Shown here in pieces: positions 8,692 to 63,583 of a stretch of 64,000 bases of DNA. Every line of letters starts with the position of its first letter. Positions within the stretch are counted from its first letter, which is position 1. Source of the DNA: an uncultured Verrucomicrobiae bacterium (GTDB taxonomy: Bacteria; Verrucomicrobiota; Verrucomicrobiia; Limisphaerales; UBA11358); assembly GCA_963738225.1 (NCBI GenBank), contig CAVTVR010000007.1, forward strand, positions 48,018-112,017. The letters are read 5' to 3'. The notes beneath the pieces are model-generated. The model searched no databases, was not told where the DNA came from, and was given only the letters and a program-made list of their open reading frames with translations. The position numbers and the translations under genes are program-made.

Positions 8692-10092
8692 ATGCCGAGC
8701 GTTTTTATAAAAACTTACGGTTGCCAGATGAACGAGCGCGACAGCGAGGCCGTCGCCGCGCAGCTCGTGACCAAGGGCTATTCGCTAGCTCCGTCCGAAG
8801 CTGCCGCCGACGTGGTGCTGCTCAACACATGCAGCGTGCGCGATTTTGCCGAGCAGAAGGCCATCAACAAAATGCGCAACATCGTCGGCGCCGCGCGCAA
8901 CCAGAAGCGCGACCAGATTGTCGGCTTCATGGGCTGCATGGCGCAAAGCCGCGGCAAGGAGCTGATTGATAAATTGCCGGACGTGGACTTGGTTCTCGGC
9001 ACGCAGAAATTTCATCGCGCGGCGGAATACATTGATGAACTGCTCGCCGGCCAGCGCAAAAAAATCGTGGACGTGGAGGCCGAGGCCAAAAGCGAGGCGA
9101 CCATTCGCGAACATCTGCTCAATGGCAGCGCCAAGACTTCCGTGTCCGCGTTCGTCAGCATCATGCAGGGCTGCAACCAGCACTGCACCTTCTGCATTGT
9201 GCCCAGCACGCGTGGCGAGGAACGCAGCCGCACCATTCCCGACATCGTCGCCGAATGCCGCGAACTCGTTTCGCGCGGCGTCAAGGAAATCACTTTGCTC
9301 GGCCAGATTGTGACGAGCTTCGGACGACGCGAGAAACGAGACGAGTGGCAAGTGGCGCGTGACGTGGCCGCCGCATCACGCATCACGCAACACGCATCAC
9401 AAAATTCGCCCTTCGTCCAACTGCTCGAAGCCGTTCACGAGATTGAAGGCTTGGAAAGAATCCGTTTCACCTCGCCGCATCCCAAAGGTTACGGCGATGA
9501 TTTGGTGGACGCCTACGCGTGCCTGCCGAAATTGTGCGAGAGCGCGCACATTCCGCTGCAAAGCGGCAGCGACCGTATTTTGAAATTGATGCACCGCGGC
9601 TACACGCGCGAAAAATTTCTCGGCATCGTGGAGAAGCTGCGCAAGGCAAAACCGGAAATGGGCGTTTACACGGACATCATCGTCGGCTTTCCGGGCGAAA
9701 CCGAAGAGGATTTTGAAATGACGCTCTCGCTCTGCCGTGAAGTGCAGTTCGACAATGCCTACATTTTCAAATACTCGCCGCGCCGCGACACGCCCGCCGC
9801 CGAAATGCCCGACCAAGTGCCGCAGGCCATCTGCGAGGAGCGCAATGAGCGGCTGCTGAACCTCGTCAACGAAATCGCCGCGCGCAAATACGACGCCTTC
9901 ATCGGGCGGCAGGTGGAGATTTTGGTGGAAGGACCGAGCAGGAAAAATCCCGCGCGCTACACTGGACGCACGCGCTGCAACCGCATCGTGCTGTTCGACG
10001 GCAGTGCCCGTCATCAAGGGCAACTCATGGAAGTGAAGATCGAGCGCACCGGCTCCTTCACGCTCTACGGCGACCCGGCGGTGAATTTGTGA
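8692..10092 (+). CDS. miaB: tRNA-2-methylthio-N6-dimethylallyladenosine synthase
   Basis: Trimmed to ATG 8692 (MPSVFIKTYGCQMNERDSE). Radical-SAM motif GCNQHCTFCIVP and a TRAM-like C-terminus. Carries an extra segment encoded by a heptamer array (see 9329-9402). Confidence 0.92.
   Translation: MPSVFIKTYGCQMNERDSEAVAAQLVTKGYSLAPSEAAADVVLLNTCSVRDFAEQKAINKMRNIVGAARNQKRDQIVGFMGCMAQSRGKELIDKLPDVDLVLGTQKFHRAAEYIDELLAGQRKKIVDVEAEAKSEATIREHLLNGSAKTSVSAFVSIMQGCNQHCTFCIVPSTRGEERSRTIPDIVAECRELVSRGVKEITLLGQIVTSFGRREKRDEWQVARDVAAASRITQHASQNSPFVQLLEAVHEIEGLERIRFTSPHPKGYGDDLVDAYACLPKLCESAHIPLQSGSDRILKLMHRGYTREKFLGIVEKLRKAKPEMGVYTDIIVGFPGETEEDFEMTLSLCREVQFDNAYIFKYSPRRDTPAAEMPDQVPQAICEERNERLLNLVNEIAARKYDAFIGRQVEILVEGPSRKNPARYTGRTRCNRIVLFDGSARHQGQLMEVKIERTGSFTLYGDPAVNL
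9329..9402. repeat. intragenic heptamer array (ACGCATC units and partner) inside miaB
   Basis: CCGCATC ACGCATC ACGCAAC ACGCATC at 9371-9398, preceded by GAGTGGC AAGTGGC GCGTGAC. GCGTGACGTGG and CCGCATCACGC are near-complementary. Encodes ...EWQVARDVAAASRITQHASQNS... in frame. Confidence 0.6.
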
Positions 10093-14999: not shown

Positions 15000-15134
15000 A
15001 TTTACGATATTCGATTTACGATTTACGATGCACGCGATGTCCGCGCGGTTTTGGCCGATGCGACCACGATGGGGAAAATTTCATTTCCTCGCGAATCATA
15101 AAAGCGCGTAAATCGTAAATCGTAAATCGTAAAT
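15000..15134. repeat. hairpin element with heptamer arms (ATTTACG x5 / CGTAAAT x4)
   Basis: Left arm 15000-15034 (ATTTACG ATATTCG ATTTACG ATTTACG ATGCACG). Right arm 15107-15134 (CGTAAAT x4, exact reverse complement unit). 72-nt loop. Lies between the hypothetical gene and gnd. Confidence 0.8.
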
Positions 15135-16614: not shown

Positions 16615-17799
16615 TCACAAACTCAAAATCGCTGCTGCCGCCCGTTCCGGCGCGCCGGGTTCGCCCAGCGAGGAAATAATTTTGGCGAGCTGCGCCTTGA
16701 TTTTTGCTCGGCGCGATTCGTCCTGCAACAATTCCAGCACGGCGCGCGAAAGATTTTCCGGCGTCGCGTCACGCTGGATGAATTCGGGATAAACCGTTTC
16801 ATCCGCGAGCAGGTTTGGCATCGTCAGCGATTTCACCGTCACGATGCGCCGGGCGATCTGATAAGTGAGCCACGATGTTTTGTAGAGCGTCACCGTCGGC
16901 ACGCCGAAAAACGCGCACTCCATCGTCACCGTGCCCGTCGAGGCGATGGCCACATCCGATTCCGCCAACGCCCACGGTAATTCACCGATCTGAATTTCCA
17001 CGTCTGCTTGGAGCGCGGACGACCTGTCCGCGAGTTCCTTCAAACCTAAATTCGGCAAAACCATTTTCGCCTTCGCCGCCGGTAGTTTTTCCTGAATCAA
17101 CTTTACCGCCGCAAGCATCACCGGCAAATGCCGCTGCAACTCGTTCTTGCGGCTGCCGGGCAGCAGAAGAATTTGCGATTGACGATTGACGATTGACGCG
17201 CCGCCAGCCAATTCGCGCGCAAATCGTAAATCGTCATTCGTAAATCTTCCCATCATCGGATGGCCGACAAATTCCACGCGCAACTGCGGCACGCGCCTGG
17301 CATACCAGTCCTTCTCGAACGGGAAAATGCTCAACAGCAAATCATAATCCGCCGCCAGCCGGTCCGCGCGGCCCGGACGCGACGCCCAGACTTGCGGCGA
17401 GACGAACTGGACGATCTTTGGCTCCCATTTCGAGAATGGATTATCGCGGACGTATTTCTTGACCGCCTGGCCGAAGCGCAGGTTGAACCCGCCGTAATCC
17501 ACGCCGATAACCACGTCCGGCTTGCGCTCAATCGCCAGTGCGAGCAGTTGATTGAAGAGCCGCCGGAATTTCAAAATGTTTTTCAGCACGTCCGTGATGC
17601 CGATGACCGAGTGCTGTGTCAGGTCGAAGGCCAGTTCCACGCCGGCGGCAGACATCTTCGCGCCGCCCGCGCCGAAGAAGACGGGCGAGGATGGCGGATT
17701 GAGGATGGAAGATTGGGCGCGCAGCGCGGCCACCAGTTCCGCCGCGAGCAAATCCCCGCTCGCCTCGCCGGCGATGAGCATGAAGGTTTTCGGTTTCAT
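16615..17799 (-). CDS. lpxB: lipid-A-disaccharide synthase
   Basis: MLIAGEASGDLLAAELV N-terminus, LLLPGSR and GTVTMECAFFGVPTV motifs. Contains an in-frame heptamer-array insert (17171-17245). Confidence 0.92.
   Translation of the reverse strand: MKPKTFMLIAGEASGDLLAAELVAALRAQSSILNPPSSPVFFGAGGAKMSAAGVELAFDLTQHSVIGITDVLKNILKFRRLFNQLLALAIERKPDVVIGVDYGGFNLRFGQAVKKYVRDNPFSKWEPKIVQFVSPQVWASRPGRADRLAADYDLLLSIFPFEKDWYARRVPQLRVEFVGHPMMGRFTNDDLRFARELAGGASIVNRQSQILLLPGSRKNELQRHLPVMLAAVKLIQEKLPAAKAKMVLPNLGLKELADRSSALQADVEIQIGELPWALAESDVAIASTGTVTMECAFFGVPTVTLYKTSWLTYQIARRIVTVKSLTMPNLLADETVYPEFIQRDATPENLSRAVLELLQDESRRAKIKAQLAKIISSLGEPGAPERAAAAILSL
17171..17245. repeat. intragenic hairpin with heptamer arms inside lpxB
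   Basis: ATTTGCG ATTGACG x3 (17171-17198), a 19-nt loop, then CGCAAAT CGTAAAT CGTCATT CGTAAAT (17218-17245). 75 nt, which is 25 codons. Same unit family as 15000-15134. Encodes ...FTNDDLRFARELAGGASIVNRQSQ... Confidence 0.8.
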
Positions 17800-20338: not shown

Positions 20339-20380
20339 AACTTTCAACTTTCAACTTTCAACCTTGAACCGCTAAACTTC
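20339..20380. repeat. tandem heptamers AACTTTC x3 plus 3 degenerate units
   Basis: AACTTTC AACTTTC AACTTTC AACCTTG AACCGCT AAACTTC, immediately upstream of the plsY GTG. No inverted partner seen. Confidence 0.7.
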
Positions 20381-38043: not shown

Positions 38044-38955
38044 TTAATTCCCGGAACCATTGTTCCTGCCTGGAACCAAAACCTCATTCGTGCTGCCGCG
38101 CCGGTAGCCTTGCAAATCCAGCGTGACGTGTGAGTAACCCAATTGTTTCAGCGTGGCGGCGACTTTGTCAGCCACGCCATCCGCCAGGAATTTTTGCAAT
38201 TCCGCCGGGCCGACCTCGATGCGGGCGAGCGCCATTGCGGATTGCGGATTGCGGATTGCGGATTGATCCGCGCCGCCAATCGCCAATCGCCAATCACCAT
38301 TCCGAAATTCATGGTGCCGGACGCGCACATCGTGAAAGCCAAGGTCTCGCAGCGCGTATTCCGCCTGCTCGATCATGCGCAGCTTGGCCGGAGTCACCGC
38401 CTCGCCGTAGGGCACGCGCGAACTCAAGCACGCCATCTGCGGCTTGTCCGCCGTCGGCAGGCCGAGTTGCGCGGACAGCTCGCGGATTTCCGCCTTGGTC
38501 AAACCGGCCTCCTTCAGCGGCGCGCGCACTTGAAACTCCGCCGCCGCCTGCGCGCCGGGCCGGAAATCACCAATGTCACTGGCGTTTTCACCGTAGGCGA
38601 TCACCGCGAAATTTTCCGCCTTTGCGAGCGGCGTCAATTCCTCGAACAACTCGTGCTTGCAGAAATAGCAGCGGTTCGCCGGGTTCGCCGTGTAATTTTC
38701 GTTGGCAAATTCCTTGGTCAAAATCACGCGGACGGGAAAGCCAAATTTTGCCGCGATGTCGAGCGCTTCCTGCAATTCGCGCCGCGGCAGGCTCGGTGAA
38801 TCGGCAATCGCCGCCAGCGCGCGGCTGCCCAGCGCGTCGTGCGCGACGCGCGCGAGAAACACCGAATCCACGCCGCCGGAATACGCGACGAGACAGGAGC
38901 CGTAGCTTTTCAGCAACGACCGCAATTTTTCAAGTTTGTTGTTCGCTTCGCTCAT
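38044..38955 (-). CDS. larE: ATP-dependent sacrificial sulfur transferase LarE (PP-loop)
   Basis: PP-loop VAYSGGVDS, then RCYFCKHELF and ACLSSRVPYG. Has an in-frame extra segment from the heptamer array (38234-38303). Confidence 0.87.
   Translation of the reverse strand: MSEANNKLEKLRSLLKSYGSCLVAYSGGVDSVFLARVAHDALGSRALAAIADSPSLPRRELQEALDIAAKFGFPVRVILTKEFANENYTANPANRCYFCKHELFEELTPLAKAENFAVIAYGENASDIGDFRPGAQAAAEFQVRAPLKEAGLTKAEIRELSAQLGLPTADKPQMACLSSRVPYGEAVTPAKLRMIEQAEYALRDLGFHDVRVRHHEFRNGDWRLAIGGADQSAIRNPQSAMALARIEVGPAELQKFLADGVADKVAATLKQLGYSHVTLDLQGYRRGSTNEVLVPGRNNGSGN
38234..38303. repeat. intragenic heptamer hairpin inside larE (ATTGCGG x4 / CCAATCG x3)
   Basis: Ten consecutive 7-nt units in one phase: ATTGCGG x4, ATTGATC, CGCGCCG (loop), CCAATCG x2, CCAATCA, CCATTCC. 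Encodes ...NGDWRLAIGGADQSAIRNPQSAM... Confidence 0.85.
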
Positions 38956-39014: not shown

Positions 39015-40352
39015 CTACCGTTTCTTGTTCTTTGCCGCCGCTGCAATTTCAAAAACCTGTCTCACCGGCACGCCGGCTTTGTCCGCCAGCTTTTTGGCCG
39101 ATTCAAATTCCGGCGCGGCCTGCACCACTTTACCACCAAGTTTGCCAATTTTCACGGTCACATTTCCTAATGAGGTTTTGACCTCGGTGAACTCACGGCG
39201 CAGCTTGCGGCGTTCGGCAACCGTTTTGCGCACGCCGAACGCGGTCGCCTCGCGCAAAATCAATTCGGCAAATTTGTCGGCTTCGGCTTCCGCGCACAAA
39301 ACCGTGAGCAGCACGCCGGGCCGGTTCTTTTTCATCTGAATCGGCGTGTGGAAAACGTCCAGCGCGCCCGCCGCCAGCGCGGTTTCGACAAAGGCGCCGA
39401 GAATTTCGCCGGAGCAATCGTCCAGATTGGTTTCCAGCACGGCGACTTTGTCTGACTCCCAATCCAAACCAGGCGCGACAACTTTGGACTTTGGACTTTG
39501 GACTTTGGACAAGCCGCCAAGCACCGCGCGCAGCACGTTTGGCCGCGTTTTATTTTCGCGCGTGCCAAGGCCAAAACCGATTTTTTCGGCGACCAAATTT
39601 TCCATCGGGCCGAAACTCTCGACAAATTCCGCCAGCAGCGCCGCACCCGTGGGCGTGACCAGTTCGTGAGGTTCGTCGCATTGCGAAACGGGAATTTTCC
39701 GCGCGCCAAGAATCGCCAGCGTGGCCGGCGCGGGCACGGGAAATTTCCCGTGCGCGCAATCAATCCAACCGGTGCCTTCCACCACCGGCGAGGCGAACAC
39801 GCGCGGCTTGCCGAGCAGTTCCAGCGCGATGGCCGCGCCCACAATGTCAACGATGGAGTCCACCGCGCCGACTTCGTGGAAGTGAACTTCCGCTGGCGGC
39901 AGGCCGTGGATTTTTCCCTCCGCTTCGGCAATGCGCTGGAAGACGGCGATGGATTTCTGCTTCACCCACGGCGAAAGCTGGCTGCGGGATATGAGATGTT
40001 TTATTTCTGCGAAATTCCGTTGCCCGTCGTGAGCGTGATGCTTGATGCTTGATGCGTGACTTTCGTGGCCATGTTCATGCGCGTGGCCGTGCTCGTGAAA
40101 ATGAATTCCGCACGTGCTTTCGTGAACATGATGTTCATGTCCATGATCGTGATCGTGCGCGAGGTGGACATCAAATTTCACGCCGGCGATGGTGGATTTT
40201 TGCTGGCGCGAAATGTGGAGATGATAGCCGTCGAGCTTGAGTTTTTTCAACTCGCGTTCGAGACTGGCGGCGTCCACGCCAAGATCCAGCAATGCGGCGA
40301 TGAACATGTCGCCCGCGATGCCGCTGATGAGATCGAGATAGAGAATTTTCAT
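39015..40352 (-). CDS. larC: nickel-pincer cofactor nickel insertase LarC
   Basis: Trimmed to ATG 40352 (MKILYLDLISGIAGDMFIAALLDLG). His-rich stretch HDHDHGHEHHVHE...HEHGHAHEHGHE. Full-length LarC/DUF111 pattern. Confidence 0.9.
   Translation of the reverse strand: MKILYLDLISGIAGDMFIAALLDLGVDAASLERELKKLKLDGYHLHISRQQKSTIAGVKFDVHLAHDHDHGHEHHVHESTCGIHFHEHGHAHEHGHESHASSIKHHAHDGQRNFAEIKHLISRSQLSPWVKQKSIAVFQRIAEAEGKIHGLPPAEVHFHEVGAVDSIVDIVGAAIALELLGKPRVFASPVVEGTGWIDCAHGKFPVPAPATLAILGARKIPVSQCDEPHELVTPTGAALLAEFVESFGPMENLVAEKIGFGLGTRENKTRPNVLRAVLGGLSKVQSPKSKVVAPGLDWESDKVAVLETNLDDCSGEILGAFVETALAAGALDVFHTPIQMKKNRPGVLLTVLCAEAEADKFAELILREATAFGVRKTVAERRKLRREFTEVKTSLGNVTVKIGKLGGKVVQAAPEFESAKKLADKAGVPVRQVFEIAAAAKNKKR
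39484..39511. repeat. tandem heptamers TTGGACT x4 inside larC
   Basis: TTGGACT x3 plus TTGGACA. On the coding (minus) strand this reads AGTCCAA repeats and encodes SKVQSPKSKV. Confidence 0.85.
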
Positions 40353-40367: not shown

Positions 40368-40450
40368 CCACGGATGGACACAGATTCGCACAGATGGAAA
40401 AGATTGCAGCTTCGAGAATGAATCTGTGTTTCATCTGTGTGAATCTGTGG
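40368..40450. repeat. CCACGGATGGACACAGAT-type inverted-repeat element
   Basis: CCACGGATGGACACAGATTCGCACAGATGG ... ATCTGTGTTTCATCTGTGTGAATCTGTGG. Lies between larB and larC and overlaps the last larB codons. Confidence 0.8.
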
Positions 40451-41195: not shown

Positions 41196-41325
41196 GGCGT
41201 GACAATGCCGCACGAAATGCCCGTTGTCACGCGGGAAAACCCAGGCCGTTTCCGTTTTCCACGACTGCGCGAACAACGACTCGCCGCTTGACGACCGTTG
41301 TGAATGCAGTTCAAACTGGTTCACC

Positions 41326-45449: not shown

Positions 45450-46238
45450 TCAAAACCCTTCCTTGAATCGTGAGAACTCCGTTTCCGGCGGCGTGGTGAA
45501 ATCATAATTCCGCTCGCGCCAGACGAATTGAATCCGCCCGGCGTGCAGCGCGTGCCGCGGCAGGATGAGCCGGGCGCGCTGTTCATCCGTCAAACGGCCT
45601 TCCACCAGCGCGAGATATAAATCGGGATCGCCGCCGTAAATTTTGTCGCCCACGATGGGATGGCCGAGGTGCGCGAGATGGATGCGAATTTGGTGCTTGC
45701 GTCCGGTGTGTGGAATCAGGCGCACCAGCGAAAACGCGGCGGCGGCGCGCGAAAATCTTTTTTCCACGAAAAATTCCGTCTGCGCGGGCGCGCCGTCAGG
45801 CCGGACGCAGTCCTTGATGGCGACGATGCTTGTTTCGTCTTTGCCGAGCGGCGCGTCAATGATCCCATGCTCCGCCGCGATGTGGCCGTGAACGATGGCG
45901 CAGTATTCCTTTCGCACGGCGCGAGTCTCCCAGATTTTCCCCAGTTCGCGCGCCGCCGCGGGATTTTTGGCGATGACGACGAGGCCGGATGTTTCGCGGT
46001 CGAGGCGGTGGATGAGATGAGGCGCGAGGCATGAGGCAATGGGCGCGAGGGTTTGCCCCGCGCCTCGCGCCTCGCGCCCCGCGCCAGACAAATAAATCCG
46101 CACGCGGCTGATGAGGCTGGAGTATTCGTCGCCTTTGGTGGGATGACAAACCAGATCGGCGGGTTTGTGGACGACAAGCAGGTCGGCGTCTTCATGAATG
46201 ATGGCGAAGAGTTTTTCCAAACGCGGAAATTTAACCAC
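45450..46238 (-). CDS. RluA-family pseudouridine synthase
   Basis: HRLDRETSGLVV catalytic Asp motif and PHTGRKHQIRIHL. The track N-terminus (46334) is translated repeat, so the start is set tentatively at GTG 46238. Has an in-frame insert at 46014-46085. Confidence 0.82.
   Translation of the reverse strand: MVKFPRLEKLFAIIHEDADLLVVHKPADLVCHPTKGDEYSSLISRVRIYLSGAGREARGAGQTLAPIASCLAPHLIHRLDRETSGLVVIAKNPAAARELGKIWETRAVRKEYCAIVHGHIAAEHGIIDAPLGKDETSIVAIKDCVRPDGAPAQTEFFVEKRFSRAAAAFSLVRLIPHTGRKHQIRIHLAHLGHPIVGDKIYGGDPDLYLALVEGRLTDEQRARLILPRHALHAGRIQFVWRERNYDFTTPPETEFSRFKEGF
46014..46085. repeat. intragenic heptamer hairpin inside the RluA-family gene (GGCGCGA / TCGCGCC units)
   Basis: GAGATGA GGCGCGA GGCATGA GGCAATG GGCGCGA, a 9-nt loop, then CCGCGCC TCGCGCC TCGCGCC CCGCGCC. 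72 nt, which is 24 codons. Encodes ...SGAGREARGAGQTLAPIASCLA... Confidence 0.85.
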
Positions 46239-46363
46239 GGATGGACTCGGATGGACACAGATAAAATGAAGAAGGCCGAATGATGAATGAAGAAACGGGA
46301 AATCCGTGAGCCGCCCGCGAAGAAGTTTCTTCATTCTTCATTCAAAATTCTTCATTCTTCCTT
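46235..46363. repeat. composite element: CCACGGATGGA...CACAGATAAA unit plus AATGAAG/CTTCATT heptamer hairpin
   Basis: CCACGGATGGACTCGGATGGACACAGATAAA at 46235-46265. Left arm AATGAAG-type units 46265-46292. Right arm CTTCATT CTTCATT CAAAATT CTTCATT CTTCCTT at 46329-46363. Confidence 0.8.
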
Positions 46364-46369: not shown

Positions 46370-48248
46370 ATGCGCCGCAATTGGATCATCGCCCTGCTGC
46401 TCGCCGCCGGCACGCTGGCTCTTTACTGGCCGGTGCGACGGTTTGATCTGATTTATTTTGACGATCCGCTGCTGCTGACGAGCTGCCCGGAGGTGCAGGC
46501 CGGCCTGACTTGGGCCAGCGTAAAATGGGCGTTCACCAGCGTGGTCATCGCCAACTGGCAGCCGGTGACGAATCTCTCGTTCCTCGCGGTGTCGCAATTT
46601 TTTGGCATCGCGCCCGGCGCGCATCATTTGGCGAACGCAATGATTCACGCCGCCAACGCCGCGCTGCTGTTCCTGCTGCTGTGGCGGCTGACCAATTCAA
46701 CCTGGCGCAGCGCGGCGGCAGCGGCGATTTTTGCGTGGCATCCGCTGCGCGTGGAATCAGTGGCGTGGATCGCCGAACGCAAAGACGTGCTGTGCGCCTT
46801 TTTCTTTCTGCTGTCGCTGCTGTTTTACGCGCAATTTGCCGGGAAGTCCAAAGTCCAAAGTCCAAGGTCCAAGGTCTTTTACGGCGCGAGCCTGCTGGCG
46901 TTTATGCTGGCGCTGATGAGCAAGCCGATGGCCGTGACGCTGCCGTTCGTGCTGCTGTTGCTGGACGTGTGGCCGCTGGAACGAATTTCAAATCTCAAAT
47001 TTCAAATCTCAAATTTCAAGCCGTTGCTGGTTGAAAAAATTCCGTTCTTCGCGCTGATGCTGGTGTTTTGCGTGGTGACGTATTGGATTCAGCACGATTA
47101 CACGGCCATGACGCCGTGGGCAAAACTTGGTCTTGCCCCACGCGTGGCCAACGCCATCTCCGGCTATCTCGCGTATCCCGCGCGGCTTTTCTGGCCGCTG
47201 CATCTCGCGGCGATTTATCCCTATCCGAAAAATTTCGACTTGACGCAGACCGTTTTGAAAGCCGCGCTGCTGCTCGCGATTAGTCTCGGTTGTCTCCTGC
47301 AACTGCCGCGCCGCCCGTGGCTCGCGGCCGGCTGGTTTTGGTATGTCGTCACGGCGTTGCCCGTCATCGGCATCGTGCAAGTCGGCGAACAGGCGATGGC
47401 TGACCGCTACACCTATCTGCCGCTCATCGGCCCGGTCGTGGCGCTGGTGTGGACGGCGGCGGAAATTTTTTCGCGCGGGCGCGGCGGAAAAATCTTTCTG
47501 ACTGCGGCAACGGTTTTTATTTTGTCCGCGCTGGCGGTTTTATCAGCCCGGCAGTTGCAGTTCTGGCGCAACACCATCGCGCTCTTTACCCACAACGTGG
47601 CCGTGACGCCGGACAACGGCTCGGCGCATTTCACGTTGGGCCTCGGTTATGAACACGCCGGCGACACCATCCGTGCCGTGATCTGCTACCGTGTGGCCAA
47701 GGCGTTCTCGCCCGGCGACCTCCAGATCCGCCGCAGCCTCGCCGGCCTGCTCGCCAAGCAAGGCCAATTCGCCGCCGCCGAAGCCGAATACGCCGAACTG
47801 CTGGCCCGGCAGCCCGATGATTTTGAAAGCCATGCCGGCCTCGCCGGAGTGTTCGCCGCGCAAGGCCGAACCGTGGAGGAGATTGATCAACTCAACCAAG
47901 CCGTGCAGCTTGATCCCAATTCCGCCGACGCGCTGAACAATCTGGCCTGGGCGCTCGCCACCAGCCTGCGCCCGGAACTTCGCGACGCCCCGCGCGCCGT
48001 GACGCTCGCGCAACGCGCCTGCGAACTGACCCAGTTTAAAAAAACCATGTTCCTCGGCACGCTCGCCGCCGCGCAGGCCGACCGCCGGAAAATTTGATGA
48101 CGCCATCGGCACCGCGCAAAGAGCCTGCGTTCTCGCGGCGAAAAATGGGGAAACAGATTTATTGCAGCGAAATCAGGAATTGCTGGAACGCTACCGCCAG
48201 CATGAAACGAGCGAAGGAAGAATGAAAAAGCGAAGGATAGAATTATGA
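46370..48248 (+). CDS. PMT/TMTC-like membrane glycosyltransferase with C-terminal TPR repeats, one frame break near the 3' end
   Basis: Multiple TM segments with a DUF1736-like region (WHPLRVESVAWIAERKDVL). TPR repeats from about residue 400. After a shift near 48080 the tail reads FDDAIGTAQRACVLAAKNGETDLLQRNQELLERY..., with stop at 48246-48248. Confidence 0.73.
46845..46872. repeat. tandem heptamers AGTCCAA x3 plus GGTCCAA inside the PMT/TPR gene
   Basis: Same unit and same coding orientation as the larC array. Encodes KSKVQSPRSKV. Confidence 0.85.
46984..47018. repeat. tandem heptamers AATTTCA/AATCTCA x5 inside the PMT/TPR gene
   Basis: AATTTCA AATCTCA AATTTCA AATCTCA AATTTCA. Encodes ISNLKFQISNFK. 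Confidence 0.85.
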
Positions 48249-48324
48249 ATGAAGAATGAAGAAGCAAATGTGTCTGGGCGTCCGGACAAAATGTTTCTTC
48301 ATTCATCATTCTGCCTTCTTCATT
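48218..48324. repeat. heptamer hairpin (GAATGAA / CTTCATT units) between the PMT/TPR gene and uppS
   Basis: Left arm includes GAATGAA at 48220, 48247 and 48254. Right arm CTTCATT CATCATT CTGCCTT CTTCATT at 48297-48324. Same unit family as 46265-46363. Confidence 0.78.
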
Positions 48325-50464: not shown

Positions 50465-50471
50465 AAAATCA

Positions 50472-57367: not shown

Positions 57368-57389
57368 GTTAAATCAAAAATATTCTTAA

Positions 57390-57523
57390 CCACGGATGGA
57401 CACAGATGGACACAGATAAAAACAAAACGCAGAGGCGCAGAGGCCGCCAAGAGTCGCTGAGAAAATTTCCCCTGCGAGTCTCTGCGTTTTTCCCCATCTG
57501 TGTTTATCTGTGTCCATCTGTGG
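57390..57523. repeat. nested inverted-repeat element of the CCACGGATGGACACAGAT family
   Basis: Outer arms CCACGGATGGACACAGATGGACACAGATAAA / TTTATCTGTGTCCATCTGTGG. Inner stem AAAACGCAGAG...CTCTGCGTTTT. Fills the deoR-pduS gap. Confidence 0.85.
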
Positions 57524-57530
57524 TTCAAAT

Positions 57531-58314
57531 TCATTCTGCTCCATTGGCGTGCGGTGCCGGAGCCAAGATCACTTCCACACCGCGTTCGCGCAATGCCGTG
57601 ATTAAATCCTGCGGCGCTTTGCTGTCGGTGACAATCGTGTCCACCATGTCGAGTCCGCACAGCGGCGATACGGACTGCCGGCCAAATTTCGTGTGGTCGA
57701 GGCAGAAAATAATTTTCTGCGCGGCTTTCAGCATCGCGCGCTGGATGTCAATCAACAGCGCGTGCGAATTGGTGATGCCTTCGAGCGTGATGCCGCCGGC
57801 GCTCATGATCGCCACGTCGGCGCGCATTTTGGAAAACGCCTCGACCGTCATCGGCCCGACCAGCACGCCGAGCCGCGGATAAATCACGCCGCCCGCCAAA
57901 ATCACTTCCACTTTGTTCGCCGAGGCAAAAAGATTGGCCACCGGCAGAGAGTTCGTCACGATCTGCGGCGCTTTTTCTTCGAGATGCCGCGCGACGTGAT
58001 AGACCGTCGTGCCGGCATCCAAAATCACGCTTTGATTTGCGCCGATCAATTCCGCGCACGCTTTGCCGATCGCTTCTTTTTCCGAAAGCTGATGCGTGTC
58101 GCGCGACGGAGAATGCAAATTCATCCGTCTTCGGCGTGACGATGCGCGCGCCGCCGTGCGTGCGCCGCAAATTCCCTGCCGCTTCAAGCGTCGACAAATC
58201 GCGCCGCACGGTGGAAACCGACGCTTCGACGTGCTTGGAAAATTCTTCCAGCGACGCAAATTCAACACGTTGAAGATAGTCTTCAATGCGATGTTTGCGC
58301 TCTTCTGCCGTCAT
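57531..58314 (-). CDS. DeoR-family transcriptional regulator, one frame break
   Basis: N-terminal wHTH (FSKHVEASVSTVRRDLSTLEAAGNLRRTHGGA) in frame 57748-58314. DeoR C-terminal sugar-phosphate sensor domain (SVILDAGTTVYHVARHL...IMSAGGITLEG...) in frame 57531-58286. Shift near 58120. Confidence 0.87.
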
Positions 58315-58330
58315 ATTTCCAACAATTTGA

Positions 58331-58389
58331 TAGATTTTGGAAGATTTTGCAAGAAAAATGTTGACTTAAATTCTAAAATCCTGTCAAAT
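58331..58389 (+). promoter_or_regulatory. deoR/pduL divergent control region: 10-bp-phased direct repeats and a sigma70-like promoter
   Basis: TAGATTTTGG AAGATTTTGC AAGAAAAATG (58331-58360), then TTGACT (58361-58366), a 17-nt spacer and TCAAAT (58384-58389). The ATG follows at 58403. Confidence 0.3.
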
Positions 58390-58402
58390 TCAGTCAAAGT
58401 TT

Positions 58403-59081
58403 ATGTCTGTTGCTGCTCCAGCACCACATCGCGCCGTCGTCGAACATTTGGTTCGACAGGCGGTTTATGCGCGTCTTGGCAAGCCGTTGCCGCGCACTGC
58501 GAGCGGCGCCGAATCCGCTCGTCGTCAACGTCAGCGCGCGTCATTGTCATCTCACGCCGGAAGCGGTCGAGGCGCTTTTTGGCAAAGGCCACCAGCTCGG
58601 CGTCCACAAATGGCTTTATCAGGACGGCCAGTTCGCGGCGAAGGAAACCGTCACGCTCATCGGCCCGCGCAGCCGCGTGATTTCCAATTTGCGCATCCTC
58701 GGCCCGTGCCGGAGTCTGAATCAAGTCGAACTCGCTTACACGGATTCCATCGCGCTCGGTTTCGACATTCCGCTGCGCGCGTCCGGCAACATCAAGGACA
58801 CGCCCGGCGCGATGCTGATGGGCCCGGCGGGATTTTTTGAGATGCCGGATGGCGTGATCCGCGCGTTGCGGCACGTCCACATGAGCCCGACGGACGCGGA
58901 TTTTTACGGCGTGAAGCACGGCGACAACATGAAGTTAAAGATCGGCGGCGATTGCGGCATCATTCTCGACAAAATGCTTTGCCGCGTGGACAAGAGTTTC
59001 AAACTGGAAGTCCACATTGACACCGACGAAGGCAACGCCTGCAATTTGCAGCCCGACACGCCGGTCGAACTTGTAAAATAA
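58403..59081 (+). CDS. pduL: phosphate acyltransferase PduL (BMC-associated phosphotransacylase), probable frame break near the 5' end
   Basis: The catalytic part is intact in frame 58410 (VVNVSARHCHLTPE..., RHVHMSPTDA, HIDTDEGNA). Frame 58403 supplies MSVAAPAPHRAVVEHLVRQAVYARLGK. An unbroken alternative is ATG 58467-59081. Confidence 0.85.
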
Positions 59082-59120
59082 ATTTCTCACAACCCTCAAC
59101 CATCAACCAAAAAATAAATT

Positions 59121-59405
59121 ATGAGCGAAGCAATAGGAATGATTGAAACCAAGGGCTACGTCGGCAGCGTCGAAGCCAGCGATGCCATGGTCAAGGCCGC
59201 CAACGTCACGCTGGTCAAAACCATCGCCATCGGCGGCGGCCTGATCACCGTCATCGCGCAGGGCGACGTCGGCAGCATCAAGGCCGCCGTGGACGCCGGC
59301 GCAAAAGCCGCCGCCAAGGTCGGCGAACTCGTCAGTTCGCACATCATCGCGCGCCCGCACGATGAACTGCTCGCCGCCTTTCTCGGCAACGGCGTGAAAA
59401 AATAA
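59121..59405 (+). CDS. BMC-H shell protein (PduA/CcmK-type hexamer) 1
   Basis: MSEAIGMIETKGYVGSVEASDAMVKAANVTLV...GDVGSIKAAVDAGAKAA...SHIIARPH, the canonical PF00936 pattern. Confidence 0.93.
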   Translation: MSEAIGMIETKGYVGSVEASDAMVKAANVTLVKTIAIGGGLITVIAQGDVGSIKAAVDAGAKAAAKVGELVSSHIIARPHDELLAAFLGNGVKK

Positions 59406-59437
59406 TTCAACCAACCAAATTTTAACTCTTAACGAAT

Positions 59438-59717
59438 ATGTCAAAACAAGCTGTTGGAATGATTGAATGCAAAGGGTTCTGCGCCGCCGATGGAAGCCGC
59501 CGACGCCGCGCTCAAGTCCGCGAACGTCCACATCACCGGCTGGGAAAAAGTCGGCAGCGGCTACGTCACCGTGTTTTTCCGGGGCGACGTCGCCGCCGTC
59601 AAGGCCGCGACCGATGCCGGTGCGGCGGCCGCCGCGCAAGTCGGCTCGGTCGTCAGCGTCCAGGTGATCCCGCGCCCGCATGACGGTTTGAGCGGGCTTG
59701 GAAAATGGCTCGAATGA
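59438..59717 (+). CDS. BMC-H shell protein 2, one frame break
   Basis: [14 protein letters not shown] (frame 59438), then [51 protein letters not shown]...VIPRPH (frame 59463). Shift near 59482. Confidence 0.85.
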
Positions 59718-59720
59718 AAT

Positions 59721-59811
59721 AGAAGTTAGAAACTAGAAGATGGAAGTTAGAATTTCAAATCGGCCATCGCAAAAAAAATTCTGGCTTCTAACTACTAACT
59801 TCTAACTCCTG
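59721..59811. repeat. heptamer hairpin AGAAGTT x5 / AACTTCT x5
   Basis: Thirteen 7-nt units in one phase: AGAAGTT AGAAACT AGAAGAT GGAAGTT AGAATTT, a 21-nt loop, then a right arm reading AAATTCT GGCTTCT AACTACT AACTTCT AACTCCT. Lies between BMC-H2 and ackA. Confidence 0.85.
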
Positions 59812-59815
59812 AAAA

Positions 59816-61007
59816 ATGAAAATTCTCGTCGCCAATATCGGTTCGACGTCGCTCAAGTGGCGGCTGTTCGATTTTGCGAACAGCGCCGAACGCCTTTTGC
59901 ACAAAGGCGGCTTCGAGCGCGTCACCGATTATCCCAAGGCGATTGAAGATTGTTTGACAGAACTAAAAAACGCGAACGCGGTTCAAAATGAAAACGAATT
60001 GAGCGCCGTCGGTTTCAAAACCGTCATCGCCAAAAACGTCACCGGCTGCGTGCGCCTGGACGAAAAAGTTTTGCAGGCGATGACCGATTACAACGGCCTC
60101 GCGCCCGCGCACAATCCGCCCTACATCACCGGCATCAAATTGTTTTCGCAGCGGATGCCGAAAGTTCCGCTCATCGGACTTTTTGAAACGGCGTTCCATC
60201 AATTCGCACCCGAAGCGTCGCAACGCTATGCCGTGCCGGATGCGTGGTTGAACATCGGCGTGCGCCGCTGGGGGTTTCATGGCGCGAGCCACAAGTTCAT
60301 CGCCGAGCGCTCGGCGGAGTTGCTTGGGCGTCCCGATATCGCCGAACGCGCGCGGCAGCTTTATGTCAATGATGGCGAGGCGAAAATTTCCGGCGCGCCG
60401 TTGCGCGTGATCTTCGTGCCATCTCGGCGGCAGTTCGAGCGTGACGGGAATTTTAAATGGCGCATCCATCGGCACGAGCATGGGCATGAGCCCACAATCC
60501 GGGCTGCCGCAGAATAACCGCGTCGGCGATTTGGACGCCGAAGCGATTCCGTATGCGCTGAAAACTTTGGGGATTTCGGTTGAAGAGGCGCAGCGGCAAT
60601 TGACGAAAGAATCCGGACTGAAAGGCTTGAGCGGCGTGTCGAATGACGTTCGCGATATTTCTGACGCGGCGACCAGGGGAAATAAAAACGCGCAGCTCGC
60701 ACTTGACGTTTTTGTCGCGAGCGCACGGCATTGGATTGGCAGTTATTTTTTGCAATTGAACGGGTCGGACGCGATTGCGTTCACCGCCGGCACCGGCGAG
60801 AACCGCGCAGAACTGCGCGCCGCCATTTGCGCAAACCTGGAAAATCTCGGCATCAAGATTGACGCGGAAAAAAACAGTTCCTGCCGCGCGACGGAAGCGG
60901 TCATCAGCACAGCGGATTCGCCGGTGAAGATTTTTGTGATTCCCACGAACGAGGAACTTGTCGTGGCGCGCGAAGCGAAGCGATTTTTGGAATCGAAGAA
61001 AAATTGA
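59816..61007 (+). CDS. ackA: acetate kinase, one frame break
   Basis: MKILVANIGSTSLKW, FHGASHKF. After a shift near 60414 it reads CHLGGSSSVTGILNG...FTAGTGEN...IPTNEELVVARE. Confidence 0.9.
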
Positions 61008-61045
61008 TTTAACAAACAACTCCAACCATCAACGAAAATAAAATT

Positions 61046-61327
61046 ATGCCACAAGCCATTGGAATGATCGAAACACGCGGACTCGTCGCCCTTGTCGAGG
61101 GCACGGACGCAATGCTCAAGGCCGCCAACGTCGAGCTTATCGGCCCGATGACGCAGGTCGGCAACGCGCTCGTCACGGCGTGCGTCGTTGGCGATGTCGC
61201 CGCCGTGAAGGCCGCGACCGACGCCGGCGCGCAGGCCATCAAAGCCATCAAGGGCGAACTGGTCAGCGTCCACGTCATCGCCCGTCCGCACGCGGACGTG
61301 GAAGCGGTGTTGCCGAAGAAGAAGTAG
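61046..61327 (+). CDS. BMC-H shell protein 3
   Basis: MPQAIGMIETRGLVALVEGTDAMLKAANVELI...[16 protein letters not shown]...VHVIARPH. Confidence 0.93.
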   Translation: MPQAIGMIETRGLVALVEGTDAMLKAANVELIGPMTQVGNALVTACVVGDVAAVKAATDAGAQAIKAIKGELVSVHVIARPHADVEAVLPKKK

Positions 61328-61328
61328 C

Positions 61329-61405
61329 CAGAAGTCAGGAGTCAGAATCCAGAATGACGGCCTCCGCGTCACTTCTGAATTCTGGATTCTGAATACTGAA
61401 TTCTA
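61329..61405. repeat. heptamer hairpin CAGAAGT-type x4 / (A/G)ATTCTG-type x5
   Basis: CAGAAGT CAGGAGT CAGAATC CAGAATG, a 14-nt loop, then ACTTCTG AATTCTG GATTCTG AATACTG AATTCTA. 77 nt, which is 11 units. Lies between BMC-H3 and BMC-P1. Confidence 0.85.
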
Positions 61406-61408
61406 TTT

Positions 61409-61720
61409 ATGTTCCTCGCCAAAGTCGAAGGCCAGGTGGTCGCCACCAAGAAAGACCCGAACATGTCGGGCCGCAAACTGCTTTTGTTGCGCCCGCAGCT
61501 CGTGGACGAAAAAGACCCGACGAAGTTTCGTTCGGGAGCCAACACCATCGTGGCCGTGGACGCGCTCGGCGCCGGCGAAGGCGAAATGGTTTTGTTTTGC
61601 CAAGGCAGTTCCGCGCGGCTTGCGCCCGGCATGAAGGACGCGCCCGTGGACGCCGTCATCATCGGCCTGGTGGACAGCGTGGATGTTTTCGGAAAAGAAA
61701 TTTTCAGCGCGAAAGTCTGA
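61409..61720 (+). CDS. BMC-P vertex protein (EutN/CcmL family) 1
   Basis: MFLAKVEGQVVATKKDPNMSGRKLLLLRP...VAVDALGAGEGEMVLFCQGSSAR...DAVIIGLVDSVD, the PF03319 pattern. Confidence 0.9.
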   Translation: MFLAKVEGQVVATKKDPNMSGRKLLLLRPQLVDEKDPTKFRSGANTIVAVDALGAGEGEMVLFCQGSSARLAPGMKDAPVDAVIIGLVDSVDVFGKEIFSAKV

Positions 61721-61737
61721 ATCATATAAGCAATCAA

Positions 61738-61989
61738 ATGAACAATTCTGAAAAAGCACAATCTGGATTGAATCTCATTAAGGAAGCAATCCTAGGATAC
61801 TTTCATGATCACCCAAACGGTGTGACAAATGCAGAAATTGTTCGGGAATTGAAGCTTGAATCTGATTTTGAAGGCGAGAATCACAACTATCTTTCGTGGT
61901 CTGTGCTTGGACTTCTTGTTAACGATGTGAAAATTCGGTATGAGCGGCGAGGACGCAGCCGCTGTTACTTTTTAGCCAATAAGTTATGA
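61738..61989 (+). CDS. AT-rich small ORF, possible winged-helix protein, inside the BMC operon
   Basis: ATG 61738, 83 codons (MNNSEKAQSGLNLIKEAILGYFHDHPNGVTNAEIVRELKLES...). About 40% G+C by hand count against clearly GC-rich flanks. Its stop overlaps the aldehyde dehydrogenase ATG (ATGA). Confidence 0.5.
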   Translation: MNNSEKAQSGLNLIKEAILGYFHDHPNGVTNAEIVRELKLESDFEGENHNYLSWSVLGLLVNDVKIRYERRGRSRCYFLANKL

Positions 61990-63488: not shown

Positions 63489-63574
63489 CCACAGATGAAC
63501 ACAGATGAAACACAGATAAAAATGCAAAGCAGATCGTTTGGGCATATCTGTGTTTCATCTGTGTCAATCTGTGG
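63489..63574. repeat. inverted-repeat element of the CCACAGATG...CACAGAT family
   Basis: CCACAGATGAACACAGATGAAACACAGATAAAAA ... ATATCTGTGTTTCATCTGTGTCAATCTGTGG. Lies between the aldehyde dehydrogenase and BMC-P2. Confidence 0.85.
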
Positions 63575-63583
63575 CTTGAACCT

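Follow-up and report, generated by a model that had tools for sequence, protein, structure and literature searches.

Hairpins with arms of tandem short units in a peat-bog verrucomicrobium: probable families of short palindromic repeat elements

In a PVM-type microcompartment operon, the spacer between the stop codon of a BMC-H gene (59715-59717) and the ATG of the acetate kinase gene ackA (59816) is occupied by a hairpin whose two arms consist of tandem heptamers. The operon belongs to a peat-bog verrucomicrobium, of one Verrucomicrobiota subdivision 3 lineage represented by peat and wetland MAGs, and lies in a stretch of 64,000 nt (hereafter the window) where other hairpins are laid out in the same way from different units. 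What are these structures, and how can a layout be shared by arms that differ in sequence? We consider them to be probably non-autonomous elements, short, palindromic and repeated, which fall into several families, are similar to REPs, MITEs and Rickettsia palindromic elements and are organised like the intervening sequences (IVS) of 23S rRNA.

Tandem Repeats Finder returned 65 rows for the window, of which 25 had period 7, and these fell at essentially every coordinate listed in a first-pass annotation of the sequence. A strict self-shift scan over periods 4-15 gave 8 arrays at period 7 and 0 at every other period. A laxer scan gave 15 period-7 arrays against 0.13 expected (maximum 1 in 30 dinucleotide shuffles) and 0-2 arrays at the other periods, which bears out the preference for 7 nt proposed in that annotation. 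Head-to-tail units of 5-11 nt with 7 nt dominant place the arrays with the heptanucleotide class of long simple sequence repeats (LSSR), and the preference is in keeping with a slippage bias towards heptanucleotides that is general to bacterial genomes. An array was paired with its reverse complement at 8 loci of the window, with folds at z = -3.2 to -8.1 (+ strand, relative to shuffles); the one-armed arrays of the window gave no fold, with z about 0. Hairpins with different units thus have one layout in common, each arm being a tandem of short units, as had been noticed. The number of hairpin loci, given as at least a dozen, holds if one-armed arrays are counted; eight are two-armed, and the supposed hairpin at 28177-28204 is a weak one-armed array. 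That annotation had passed over three further hairpins with units of 10-11 nt (family g in Table 1) and the arrays at 9372-9400, 40036-40059 and 59090-59109. Per-family copy numbers are extrapolated from these 64 kb of the source genome. The elements of the window measure 70-135 nt and have inverted arms. The same architecture is found in about 100 independent assemblies, and an assembly artefact was therefore rejected.

Table 1. Arrays and hairpins of tandem short units in the window. Families are designated by letters; z, fold score relative to shuffles.
Positions	Strand	Class	Feature	Location and remarks
9345..9400	+		Family e element (GCGTGAC ... GCATCAC x4)	MiaB; 18-residue in-frame insertion; alignment to 7MJV
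15000..15134	.	Two-armed, heptamer	Family b hairpin (ATTTACG / CGTAAAT), 77-nt structured loop	Between stop codon of a 168-aa gene (15147) and 6PGD start codon (14996); z -7.0
17171..17245	-	Two-armed, heptamer	Family b hairpin	In frame in LpxB, residues 186-210; alignment to 5W8S
20339..20380	+	One-armed	TTTCAAC array, NNTCAAC leader type	Divergent intergenic region
38234..38303	-	Two-armed, heptamer	Hairpin ATTGCGG / CCAATCG	Within LarE; coincides with ~25-residue insertion; alignment to 6B2O
39481..39510	-	One-armed	CCAAAGT array	LarC; 10-residue in-frame insertion
40036..40059	-	One-armed	AGCATCA array	Extra ~37-residue segment of LarC
40379..40449	.	Two-armed, 10-11 nt	Family g hairpin	Between LarB and LarC
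46014..46085	-	Two-armed, heptamer	GC-rich heptamer hairpin	Within RluD-like pseudouridine synthase gene; overlaps 14-residue insertion (alignment to 1PRZ); z -5.6
46265..46363	.	Two-armed, heptamer	Family f hairpin (AATGAAG / CTTCATT)	Upstream of TPR-repeat membrane gene (46370-48097); z -5.1
46844..46876	+	One-armed	AAGTCCA array	Inside ORF of TPR-repeat membrane gene (46370-48097)
46984..47019	+	One-armed	AATTTCA/AATCTCA array	Inside ORF of TPR-repeat membrane gene (46370-48097)
48218..48324	.	Two-armed, heptamer	Second family f hairpin	Between convergent TPR-repeat membrane gene and UppS; z -8.1
57391..57522	.	Two-armed, 10-11 nt	Family g hairpin (CACAGATGGA x3 per arm)	Between RnfC-like and DeoR genes; z -10.5
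59090..59109	+	One-armed	NNTCAAC leader array	Directly 5' of BMC-H start codon (59121)
59721..59811	.	Two-armed, heptamer	Focal hairpin, family a (AGAAGTT / AACTTCT)	Fills BMC-H-ackA spacer; DNA fold z -3.8
61329..61405	.	Two-armed, heptamer	Hairpin CAGAATC / GATTCTG	Between BMC-H stop (61327) and EutN ATG (61409); z -5.4
63490..63573	.	Two-armed, 10-11 nt	Family g hairpin, 10-11-nt units (CACAGATGAA)	Directly 3' of AldDH stop codon; followed by tail CTTGAACCT, then next ATG (63584)

The arms of the focal hairpin (59721-59755 and 59776-59810) are 35 nt each, separated by a 20-nt loop, and 77% complementary; this amounts to about 5.4 of 7 positions per unit, within the 5-6 of 7 estimated earlier. 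Alternative pairings exist at a shift of 7 or 14 nt. It had also been claimed that three whole elements, loop included, keep a single 7-nt phase. The claim is empty for a periodic arm without fixed unit boundary: moving the start of the unit by 1 nt alters the offset between the arms by 2 (mod 7), and some rotation will therefore always place both arms in a shared frame. The family f hairpins do bracket the TPR-repeat membrane gene, as stated in the annotation, where it was called PMT/TPR. More generally, elements lie directly 3' of stop codons inside operons, sometimes providing the stop codon, as for LarB, whose stop comes from within the hairpin that follows it; others lie between convergent genes.

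Next, the element families were followed outside the window. Members turn up at loci unrelated to one another, and about 100 related contigs from metagenomes carry them as well; for instance, family a arms also stand at the BMC-H-acetate kinase junction of two relatives, and family f was found in three. In 736 kb of related loci we counted 181 period-7 arrays; adjacent pairs among them were inverted in 33 cases and direct in 10. In the same 736 kb, periods 5, 8, 11 and 13 gave 11-32 arrays each and period 10 gave 56, inverted pairs numbering at most 5 at any period other than 7. As a background at the level of the phylum only, 80 GH36-anchored genome loci showed few arrays and no synteny with the window. 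The units come from a small stock that is used repeatedly (sites/loci: AATGACG 22/14, AAATCCG 13/7, AAGAATG 9/4, AAATCGT 9/7, ACGCATC 7/4, and others), as shown by exact-unit counts; single-linkage at one mismatch had chained all units together and was discarded. Each arm holds 3-5 tandem copies of its family's own unit, and ends and tails differ by family, e.g. CCACRRATG...CATYYGTGG followed by TTGAATTT, or the AT-rich tail of family g ahead of the next start codon. The first-pass view that the hairpins are related by architecture and not by shared sequence is thus not supported. Neither is the 7-nt period the conserved feature that it was taken to be: the CACAGATGRA family has the same layout with units of 10-11 nt (CACAGAT occurs 20 times in the window against 3.9 expected), and period 7 is therefore dominant but not defining.

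Comparison of relatives, the presence/absence check suggested at the outset, showed that one and the same junction can be empty, filled by a hairpin, or filled by a hairpin and a gene, and that differing families occupy it. The spacer lengths at orthologous junctions are bimodal or trimodal: 3-30 nt or 60-171 nt from H2 to ackA, 0-13, 69-167 or 440-986 nt from P1 to Ald, and 0-6, 73-183 or 406-656 nt from Ald to P2. The RnfC-like/DeoR junction measures only 8 nt in one relative. At the stop codon the element boundary is sharp. Nested insertions, collapsed copies and one-arm remnants occur, and the loop varies: it may consist of some few bases, contain a second hairpin nested in it or, in some relatives, enclose a small gene. 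No target-site duplication was visible between filled and empty junctions, the empty spacers being just 0-15 nt and diverged, and neither a transposase linked to the elements nor a recent transposition event was found.

The gene-bearing versions, known from families a, c and g in relatives, offer another reading. Family a arms flank a 121-aa PF05635 gene in six relatives (in L082, for example, the ORF is enclosed by stem-forming inverted ends at 11519-11925), and g-type arms flank a 128-aa GxxExxY/PDDEXK_3 gene in three. The cargo is either a TIGR02436/PF05635 four-helix-bundle "23S rRNA IVS protein" or a TIGR04256 GxxExxY PD-(D/E)XK protein. Its start codon and N-terminus lie within the left arm or, in family c, within the 5' array, with a complete hairpin downstream. 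It is conceivable, and we propose it tentatively, that the hairpins belong to an undescribed kind of cassette resident in operons, of which they would be the form without a gene, the inverted tandem-unit arms around the cargo being recognition or processing sites. The arms would be recognised or processed by the cargo protein or by RNase III, both putative partners, and the element would land just 3' of a stop codon; as it would bring along stop codons and an AT-rich leader, the host operon would still work. The window holds no gene-bearing copy, and a scan for long-range inverted arms recovered no gene-bearing elements past the known cassettes, its output being mostly runs of N. The 121-aa cargo gene has its close homologues, without exception, at one identical junction, and we deduce that this cassette is old, vertically inherited and not visibly mobile. 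Full-text literature searches returned almost nothing on the genomic context of the TIGR02436/PF05635 and GxxExxY families, and the arrangement is the first such handle that we have found on these two very large orphan families. The TIGR02436 four-helix-bundle protein is related to the Avd protein of diversity-generating retroelements. If true, the existence of such cassettes would connect three observations that have so far stood apart: the heptamer repeat excess (STRR/LSSR), the intervening sequences of 23S rRNA, and the large families of paralogues to which both small proteins belong.

Returning to the reading as families of short palindromic elements, we analyzed the copies located inside genes. 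By comparison with PDB homologues, in-frame insertions were identified in 5 genes of the window, encoding LpxB, LarC, LarE, MiaB and the RluD-like protein. These in-frame elements are located in variable loops of housekeeping proteins. The peptide inserted in LpxB is kept in nearly all of the 120 homologues listed, and the CCAAAGT unit of the LarC array recurs, in the same sense, at 46844-46876.

The LpxB copies also illustrate that the arms evolve in concert, within one arm and between arms. In relative L178 the copy is a perfect 30-bp palindrome, yet both of its arms have diverged from the window copy, the differences including one C-G to A-T double change. In relative L180, two neighbouring units carry an identical base change. 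Such behaviour would also be expected if there were no element families and each hairpin arose locally and de novo, by slippage or templated synthesis with a 7-nt step followed by fold-back template switching into the opposite arm. The first-pass annotation had favoured a generating mechanism of this kind. The many different units, including the GC-rich one at 46014-46085, speak for it, as does a unit-number change in one relative (3 left and 5 right units, against 4 + 4 in its own relatives); so does the general excess of heptanucleotide repeats, ascribed to polymerase slippage over about 7 nt by Mrazek et al. 2007, as summarised in PMC4679880. Unit-number changes are however rare and the arrays are not hypervariable. 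The number of units was 5 in 3 of 3 orthologous family a copies. To look for unit-number polymorphism, as had been proposed, 10 conspecific contigs recovered from different samples were compared over 3.85 kb; this stretch takes in four hairpin spacers and showed 0 indels. Slippage must then be rare and may not be what maintains the periodicity of the arms. On the same grounds, stability within the species and between species (family a), phase-variable contingency loci were rejected. Local origin also sits badly with the recurrence of the same units, terminal motifs and tails at unrelated junctions and in many genomes, with the presence of unrelated families at one junction in different relatives, with the gene-bearing versions and with the family of period 10-11. 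We regard it as unlikely.

We also considered that the arrays might be primarily cis-regulatory, with units serving as repeated motifs for RNA-binding or single-strand-binding proteins and hairpins setting mRNA processing, stability or translation. A role of this kind was proposed for the TAACTGA direct repeats found 5' of start codons in Beggiatoaceae, cyanobacteria and Bacteroidetes (MacGregor 2015, PMC4679880). The likeness concerns the one-armed NNTCAAC arrays only, which differ in unit and are not the two-armed hairpins: both types consist of 2-5 direct heptamers just before a start codon lacking a Shine-Dalgarno sequence. An equivalent NNTCAAC leader precedes the BMC-H genes in nearly all relatives. 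The right arms of hairpins end 3-10 nt ahead of start codons that likewise lack a Shine-Dalgarno sequence, and alignment reduces each unit to a conserved core of 4-5 nt with 2-3 variable positions. A spacer of 63-173 nt separates BMC-H and BMC-P (EutN) in 64 of 66 relatives and is nearly always a hairpin, whatever its family, and these families are many. Elements are nevertheless also found in frame in the five genes named above and between convergent genes, and many junctions are empty in relatives. Sense folds contain, moreover, 421 G.U pairs against 507 for antisense folds, which are also the more stable by 1.3 kcal/mol on average. A structure specific to the sense mRNA was therefore rejected, and this lack of sense-strand bias favours palindromy at the DNA level over selection on mRNA alone. 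With RNAalifold, 17 family a hairpins gave no consensus and hence no covariation score, because tandem arms align in several registers. A primarily regulatory nature of the arrays appears quite improbable.

Mobilisation as REPINs by the Y1 (RAYT/IS200-like) transposase encoded at 17907-18359 (PF01797), put forward earlier as a possible associated enzyme, is very improbable. Y1 enzymes do act on single-stranded DNA hairpins, as established for IS200/IS605 and RAYTs (PMC3116915), but this gene scores as an IS200/IS605-family transposase, and direct copies of an ~85-nt repeat of its own lie to either side of it. That repeat bears no relation to the heptamer arms, and one of its copies matches Rfam Acido-Lenti-1. 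The GTAG head that defines most REPs is absent from the heptamer hairpins, and the GTAG-headed palindromes present in relatives form a separate family. Integron attC sites were rejected, as GTTAGAA in the 5' arm and TTCTAAC in the 3' arm are the reverse of attC (RYYYAAC ... GTTRRRY), and neither integrase nor reverse transcriptase was detected among the window genes scanned. Intrinsic terminators (GC-rich stem and T-run) were rejected too, 0 of the 4 hairpins of 57300-64000 being among the terminator-like matches. Some left-arm units contain TGA, TAG or ATG; a design in which periods 7 and 10, both 1 mod 3, place stop or start codons in all three frames is speculative, several families being devoid of these triplets.

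The first-pass annotation knew of no description of such hairpins. Published systems do come close, among them the heptanucleotide excess of 2007 as PMC4679880 summarises it. In Xanthomonas, 70-75 convergent inverted pairs of GGGAATC heptamer arrays were counted per genome (Rehm et al. 2015, PMC4692102). As there, two close arrays of one unit stand convergent on opposite strands, with about four units preferred, a possible stem-loop and a mostly intergenic position between co-directional genes, and the single or paired type is kept between species while length varies. The Xanthomonas unit is however a single G-rich one (GGGNATC) with G-quadruplex potential, whereas many AT-rich units without G-tracts occur here, some copies lie in frame within genes, some versions carry a gene, and the units of one family measure 10-11 nt. 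Rickettsia palindromic elements comprise several short palindromic families, often in frame in unrelated housekeeping genes and long retained (PMC10969869). Our elements resemble them by behaviour, namely as in-frame palindromes at tolerant positions of unrelated conserved proteins; those of Rickettsia, in another phylum, measure about 100-150 bp and tandem-repeat arms are not described for them. REPs are abundant intergenic imperfect palindromes, and classic REPs stabilise mRNA between cistrons (PMC3116915; PMC3733652). Unlike REPs and the REPIN-RAYT system, the present hairpins have neither GTAG nor CGTC head and no associated RAYT, and their arms are longer and internally repetitive. Small size and terminal inverted repeats are shared with MITEs, but instead of a transposase-encoding parent there are longer versions encoding PF05635 or GxxExxY proteins. 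With the 23S rRNA IVS the likeness is confined to relatives, where inverted ends form a long stem whose loop contains a PF05635 gene and where ORF-less and ORF-bearing forms coexist; all copies are in protein-coding operons or genes and none in a 23S rRNA helix, the window having ORF-less copies only and no rRNA. Heptameric STRR sequences were reportedly described in cyanobacteria by Mazel in 1990, and SDR elements embedded in heptamer arrays of Nostoc are said to have been reported by Elhai in 2008. Common to LSSR, STRR, SDR and our arrays are a lineage-specific excess of tandem 7-nt repeats, diverse units and small inserts within heptamer arrays; the LSSR, STRR and SDR descriptions concern direct arrays and are not known to include a two-armed palindromic layout, cargo genes or coding insertions.

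If the hairpins are indeed families of palindromic elements, they may have spread by a DNA-level process acting on the folded palindrome. Two kinds of concerted evolution would then keep the arms repetitive and complementary, namely unit-to-unit conversion or slippage within an arm and templated correction of one arm by the other. Most copies would be neutral passengers, and some may have been retained as intercistronic stem-loops, for example at the BMC-H to BMC-P junction.

Bacteria were noted for an excess of heptanucleotide repeats in 1990 and again in 2007, with neither mechanism nor function attached to it. This lineage provides an unusually readable case of it, with many families in one genome, three states of a junction, in-frame copies in essential enzymes and arms evolving in concert. 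Finally, the elements alter gene calls through false start codons, supplied stop codons and added in-frame peptides, and should therefore be masked or annotated in verrucomicrobial MAGs.

Period 7 accounts for 25 of the 65 rows that Tandem Repeats Finder returned for the window (G+C content 57.5%). Such rows cover essentially every site where the first-pass annotation had placed tandem heptamer arrays, which are therefore real. A strict self-shift scan detected 8 period-7 arrays and none of any other period between 4 and 15; under laxer conditions, 15 period-7 arrays were found against 0 to 2 for the other periods. The comparison with shuffled sequences proposed at first pass yielded an expectation of 0.13 arrays, with a maximum of 1 (30 dinucleotide-preserving shuffles). 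The prevalence of period 7 over other periods extends to related loci, at 24.6 arrays per 100 kb versus 1.5 to 4.3 for periods other than 7 and 10 that are not divisible by 3. Adjacent period-7 pairs were there inverted in 33 cases versus direct in 10, and period 10 contributed 5 inverted pairs.

An array followed by its reverse complement was found at 8 window loci, with fold z-scores of -3.2 to -8.1. The initial description as two-armed heptamer hairpins thus stands for these loci; the one-armed arrays of the window fold no better than shuffles. It had missed three hairpins built of 10-11-nt units (CACAGATGRA; CACAGAT occurs 20 times in the window vs 3.9 expected). In the hairpin under study, two 35-nt arms separated by 20 nt are complementary at 77% and can pair in multiple alternative registers offset by 7 or 14 nt; its single-stranded DNA fold has a z-score of -3.8. 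The claim that one 7-nt phase runs through whole elements is without content, because the unit boundaries of a periodic arm are arbitrary and an in-frame rotation of both arms always exists.

Coordinates of the features described in the window
Feature	Position	Remark
MiaB array	9372-9400	inside 18-residue insertion
LpxB hairpin	17171-17245	residues 186-210, entire 75-nt hairpin
Y1 repeat copy, downstream	17814-17905	
Acido-Lenti-1 match	17814-17859	51.9 bits
Y1 gene	17907-18359	minus strand
Y1 repeat copy, second	18372-18500	
RsmB/F-like methyltransferase gene	22033-23181	
R.Pab1-type ORF	23178-23996	272 aa
LarE-LarC-LarB cluster	38044-41426	
LarE array	38234-38303	~25-residue insertion
LarC array	39481-39510	10-residue insertion
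LarC array	40036-40059	inside ~37 extra residues
10-11-nt-unit hairpin	40379-40449	
RluD-like synthase array	46014-46085	overlap with 14-residue insertion
Decamer fragment	46238-46262	CGGATGGACT x2, then CACAGAT
Family f hairpin, left	46265-46363	AATGAAG/CTTCATT
TPR-repeat membrane gene	46370-48097	
Family f hairpin, right	48218-48324	AATGAAG/CTTCATT
PurA	50461-51869	appears split
RnfC-like frameshift	near 56190	
10-11-nt-unit hairpin	57391-57522	
DeoR frameshift	near 58107	
PduL frameshift	near 58512	
BMC-H leader	59082-59120	
BMC-H leader	59406-59437	
BMC-H frameshift	near 59463	
Hairpin under study	59721-59811	family a; arms 59721-59755 and 59776-59810
Acetate kinase frameshift	near 60413	
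BMC-H leader	61008-61045	
Second operon hairpin	61329-61405	
Small ORF	61597-61989	MNNSEKAQSG...
EutN to AldDH spacer	61721-61985	265 nt
10-11-nt-unit hairpin	63490-63573	third operon hairpin

Relatives of its GH36 gene assign the window to subdivision 3 of Verrucomicrobiota, with MAGs of the Pedosphaera/Limisphaerales type. The hairpin under study lies in a microcompartment operon of the Planctomycetes-Verrucomicrobia type, starting 3 nt past a stop codon and ending 4 nt ahead of the next ATG. The operon order is DeoR, PduL, BMC-H, BMC-H, this hairpin, acetate kinase, BMC-H, the second hairpin, EutN, a small ORF, AldDH, the decamer hairpin, EutN. Ahead of each of the three BMC-H genes lies a CA-rich leader devoid of Shine-Dalgarno (..CTCTCAACCATCAACCAAAATAAATT-ATG), kept in nearly all relatives (equivalents in loci L083-L162), which looks like the lineage-typical translation-initiation region of highly expressed genes. 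One-armed NNTCAAC arrays stand directly upstream of the BMC-H start codons, in parallel with the TAACTGA repeats of Beggiatoaceae (PMC4679880).

The operon was compared with 2 syntenic loci and 80 more metagenomic loci anchored on AldDH (78-89% identity; L numbers designate related loci), their genes being placed by tblastn. Spacer lengths at orthologous junctions form separate classes: empty, 3-30 nt, or hairpin, 60-171 nt, for BMC-H2 to ackA; empty, 0-13 nt, hairpin, 69-167 nt, or hairpin plus gene, 440-986 nt, for EutN to AldDH; and 0-6, 73-183 and 406-656 nt, respectively, for AldDH to EutN. Almost all long spacers are hairpins with tandemly repeated arms, and what occupies a given junction differs markedly in sequence from one relative to another. 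The BMC-H3 to EutN spacer measures 63-173 nt in 64 of 66 loci and is there almost always a hairpin, of one of at least 6 families. At the EutN to AldDH junction, slightly more than half of the relatives have a spacer of 0-13 nt; the window has there its small ORF, with no Pfam or NCBIfam match, and some relatives have a GxxExxY ORF, an Mrr_N-like ORF (weak, sub-threshold Pfam match) or ORFs without annotation in which HNH-like or Bro-N-like motifs were read by eye. Small selfish genes appear to have a hotspot here.

The elements were classed by arm unit into families a (AGAAGTT/AACTTCT), b (ATTTACG/CGTAAAT), c (GACGAAT or TCCGAAA and their complements), d (AATCGTT/CGATTCA), e (GCGTGAT/ATCACGC), f (AATGAAG/CTTCATT) and g (decamers), besides a GC-rich, GTAG-headed family whose arms are not tandem. 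Exact-unit counts in sites/loci (AATGACG 22/14, AAATCCG 13/7, AAGAATG 9/4, AAATCGT 9/7, ACGCATC 7/4) confirm a limited unit vocabulary. Relatives share nearly all units of the window, CCAAAGT/AAAGTCC alone being found by these counts in the window only, and the proposal that the hairpins share a layout without shared sequence had to be abandoned in favour of recurring families. These are frequent in the window and at both the operon and LpxB loci, and a broader set of verrucomicrobial loci (1.33 Mb) contains few of them. The GTAG-headed palindromes of relatives (GTAGCGGCG...CGCCGCTAC and GTAGGAGACG...CGTCTCCTAC; L182 4001-5266, L085 8587-9214 and several BMC-H3 to EutN spacers) are classical REP-like elements; one, encoding ..LETPHVVSY..., lies in frame within the loop of the LpxB heptamer hairpin.

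Element boundaries are sharp. Elements start directly behind the upstream stop codon, and family g reads CCAC(A/G)RATG...CATYYGTGG, then (C)TTGAATTT, then the next ATG, this tail being missing at empty AldDH to EutN junctions. The EutN frame of L082 runs into the element and ends at its TGA, as the LarB frame of the window does at 40431. L101, L121 and L123 show collapsed elements and solo arms, and a hairpin is nested in a hairpin loop in L105/L107 and L182. Two family f copies flank the TPR-repeat membrane gene of the window, the left one adjoining a decamer fragment.

Arrays within ORFs coincide with insertions relative to solved homologues, as judged by alignment, a behaviour that matches the Rickettsia palindromic elements (PMC10969869). 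The TPR gene (called PMT/TPR at first pass) contains 2 further one-armed heptamer arrays, one with the unit and sense of a LarC array. The lactate racemase cofactor cluster holds four repeat elements, three in frame in LarE/LarC and one separating LarB and LarC.

Three arm families surround, in relatives, a small ORF co-directional with the operon. Family a carries a 121-aa PF05635/TIGR02436 four-helix-bundle '23S rRNA intervening-sequence protein', weakly similar to Avd (L082, L085, L101, L126, L132, L144; truncated in L114), family c 151-162-aa PF05635 proteins (L109, L111, L113, L120, L123, L127, L128, L155) and family g a 128-aa TIGR04256 GxxExxY/PDDEXK_3 protein (L098, L100, L103). In all three, repeat units encode the start codon and first residues of the cargo; the final residues and stop codon of the 121-aa gene lie within the right arm. 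In family c, MTKE-type proteins go with GACGAAT arms and MPKE-type with TCCGAAA arms, and a complete hairpin follows the ORF. The AldDH to EutN junction is where all close homologues (76-92% identity) of the 121-aa protein lie; this cassette is an old, vertically inherited resident, not a recent arrival. No PF05635 or GxxExxY cargo was found in the window, which therefore has only gene-less forms, or in the verrucomicrobial loci anchored on a GH36 gene.

Of the 120 LpxB homologues listed (79-90% identity), nearly all have the hairpin peptide (FTNDDLRFT...SIVNRxSQI), some with extra in-frame inserts within its loop. In L178 the hairpin forms a perfect palindrome of 30 bp (-51.5 kcal/mol) yet differs from the window copy in both arms, including one C-G to A-T double change; the right arm of the window copy now comprises three identical CGTCAAT units, and L180 has the same C-to-G change in two adjacent units, one synonymous and one not. 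Thus, two homogenising processes are visible, from unit to unit within an arm and from arm to arm across the palindrome. Both are slow. Unit-number polymorphism, which the first pass proposed to look for, was seen in one family b copy (3 and 5 units vs the usual 4 and 4) but not in orthologous family a hairpins (5 units in all three species), and 10 conspecific contigs from different samples showed 10 SNPs and no indels over 3.85 kb including four hairpin spacers. The 7-nt unit would agree with the general heptanucleotide bias that Mrazek (2007), as cited in PMC4679880, put down to polymerase slippage. The arrays here are stable, however, and their units combine a conserved core with variable flanks, a pattern that repeated binding sites would fit as well.

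Among 154 distinct operon-spacer hairpins of known transcribed strand, the antisense fold had a small stability advantage (mean 1.3 kcal/mol, p = 0.01), and G.U pairs numbered 421 in sense and 507 in antisense folds. They gave no sign of mRNA-specific maintenance of pairing; palindromy looks symmetric, which favours an origin at the level of DNA. No operon hairpin looks like an intrinsic terminator, and the hairpins have no Rfam match. The Y1 gene, suggested at first pass as a RAYT and associated enzyme, is a poor candidate, scoring as an IS200/IS605-family transposase and having on either side, in direct orientation, a copy of its own ~85-nt structured repeat, which is unrelated to the heptamer arms. 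The sole Rfam match of the window, Acido-Lenti-1, falls in its downstream repeat copy, which suggests that this 'sRNA' motif is an end or REP-like partner of the transposase. Pfam scans of 46 window ORFs turned up no reverse transcriptase, no integrase and no transposase besides Y1; 36 of these ORFs showed only ordinary metabolic or housekeeping domains or none, plus one R.Pab1-like restriction-endonuclease domain in an ORF adjoining an RsmB/F-like methyltransferase gene.

At least 5 frameshifts relative to L081 break conserved operon genes between 56056 and 61007, so the window assembly seems error-prone, perhaps from uncorrected long reads. The hairpin architecture is no assembly artefact, since it recurs in ~100 independent assemblies.

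The first-pass annotation knew of no description of such elements, yet inverted heptamer pairs are on record, and heptamer excess and the cyanobacterial STRR repeats are older observations still. The recorded pairs are two-armed arrays of a single G-rich unit, GGGAATC, with 70-75 inverted pairs per Xanthomonas genome (PMC4692102). We found in the literature no description of a lineage with many unit families built to one architecture, of in-frame copies or of PF05635 and GxxExxY cargo in such elements, and full-text searches turned up almost nothing on the genomic context of the PF05635/TIGR02436 and GxxExxY families; a MITE review makes no mention of 'tandem repeat', 'subterminal' or 'heptam'. 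It was directly observed that families recur, that elements are present or missing with sharp boundaries, and that they nest, lie in frame in genes, carry cargo in relatives and have arms evolving in concert; the hairpins are best regarded as related families of dispersed palindromic elements, REP/MITE/RPE-like by behaviour and IVS-like by organisation. They would have spread by a mechanism acting on folded DNA; most copies are probably neutral, and some may have been kept as intercistronic stem-loops, for instance at the BMC-H to BMC-P junction.
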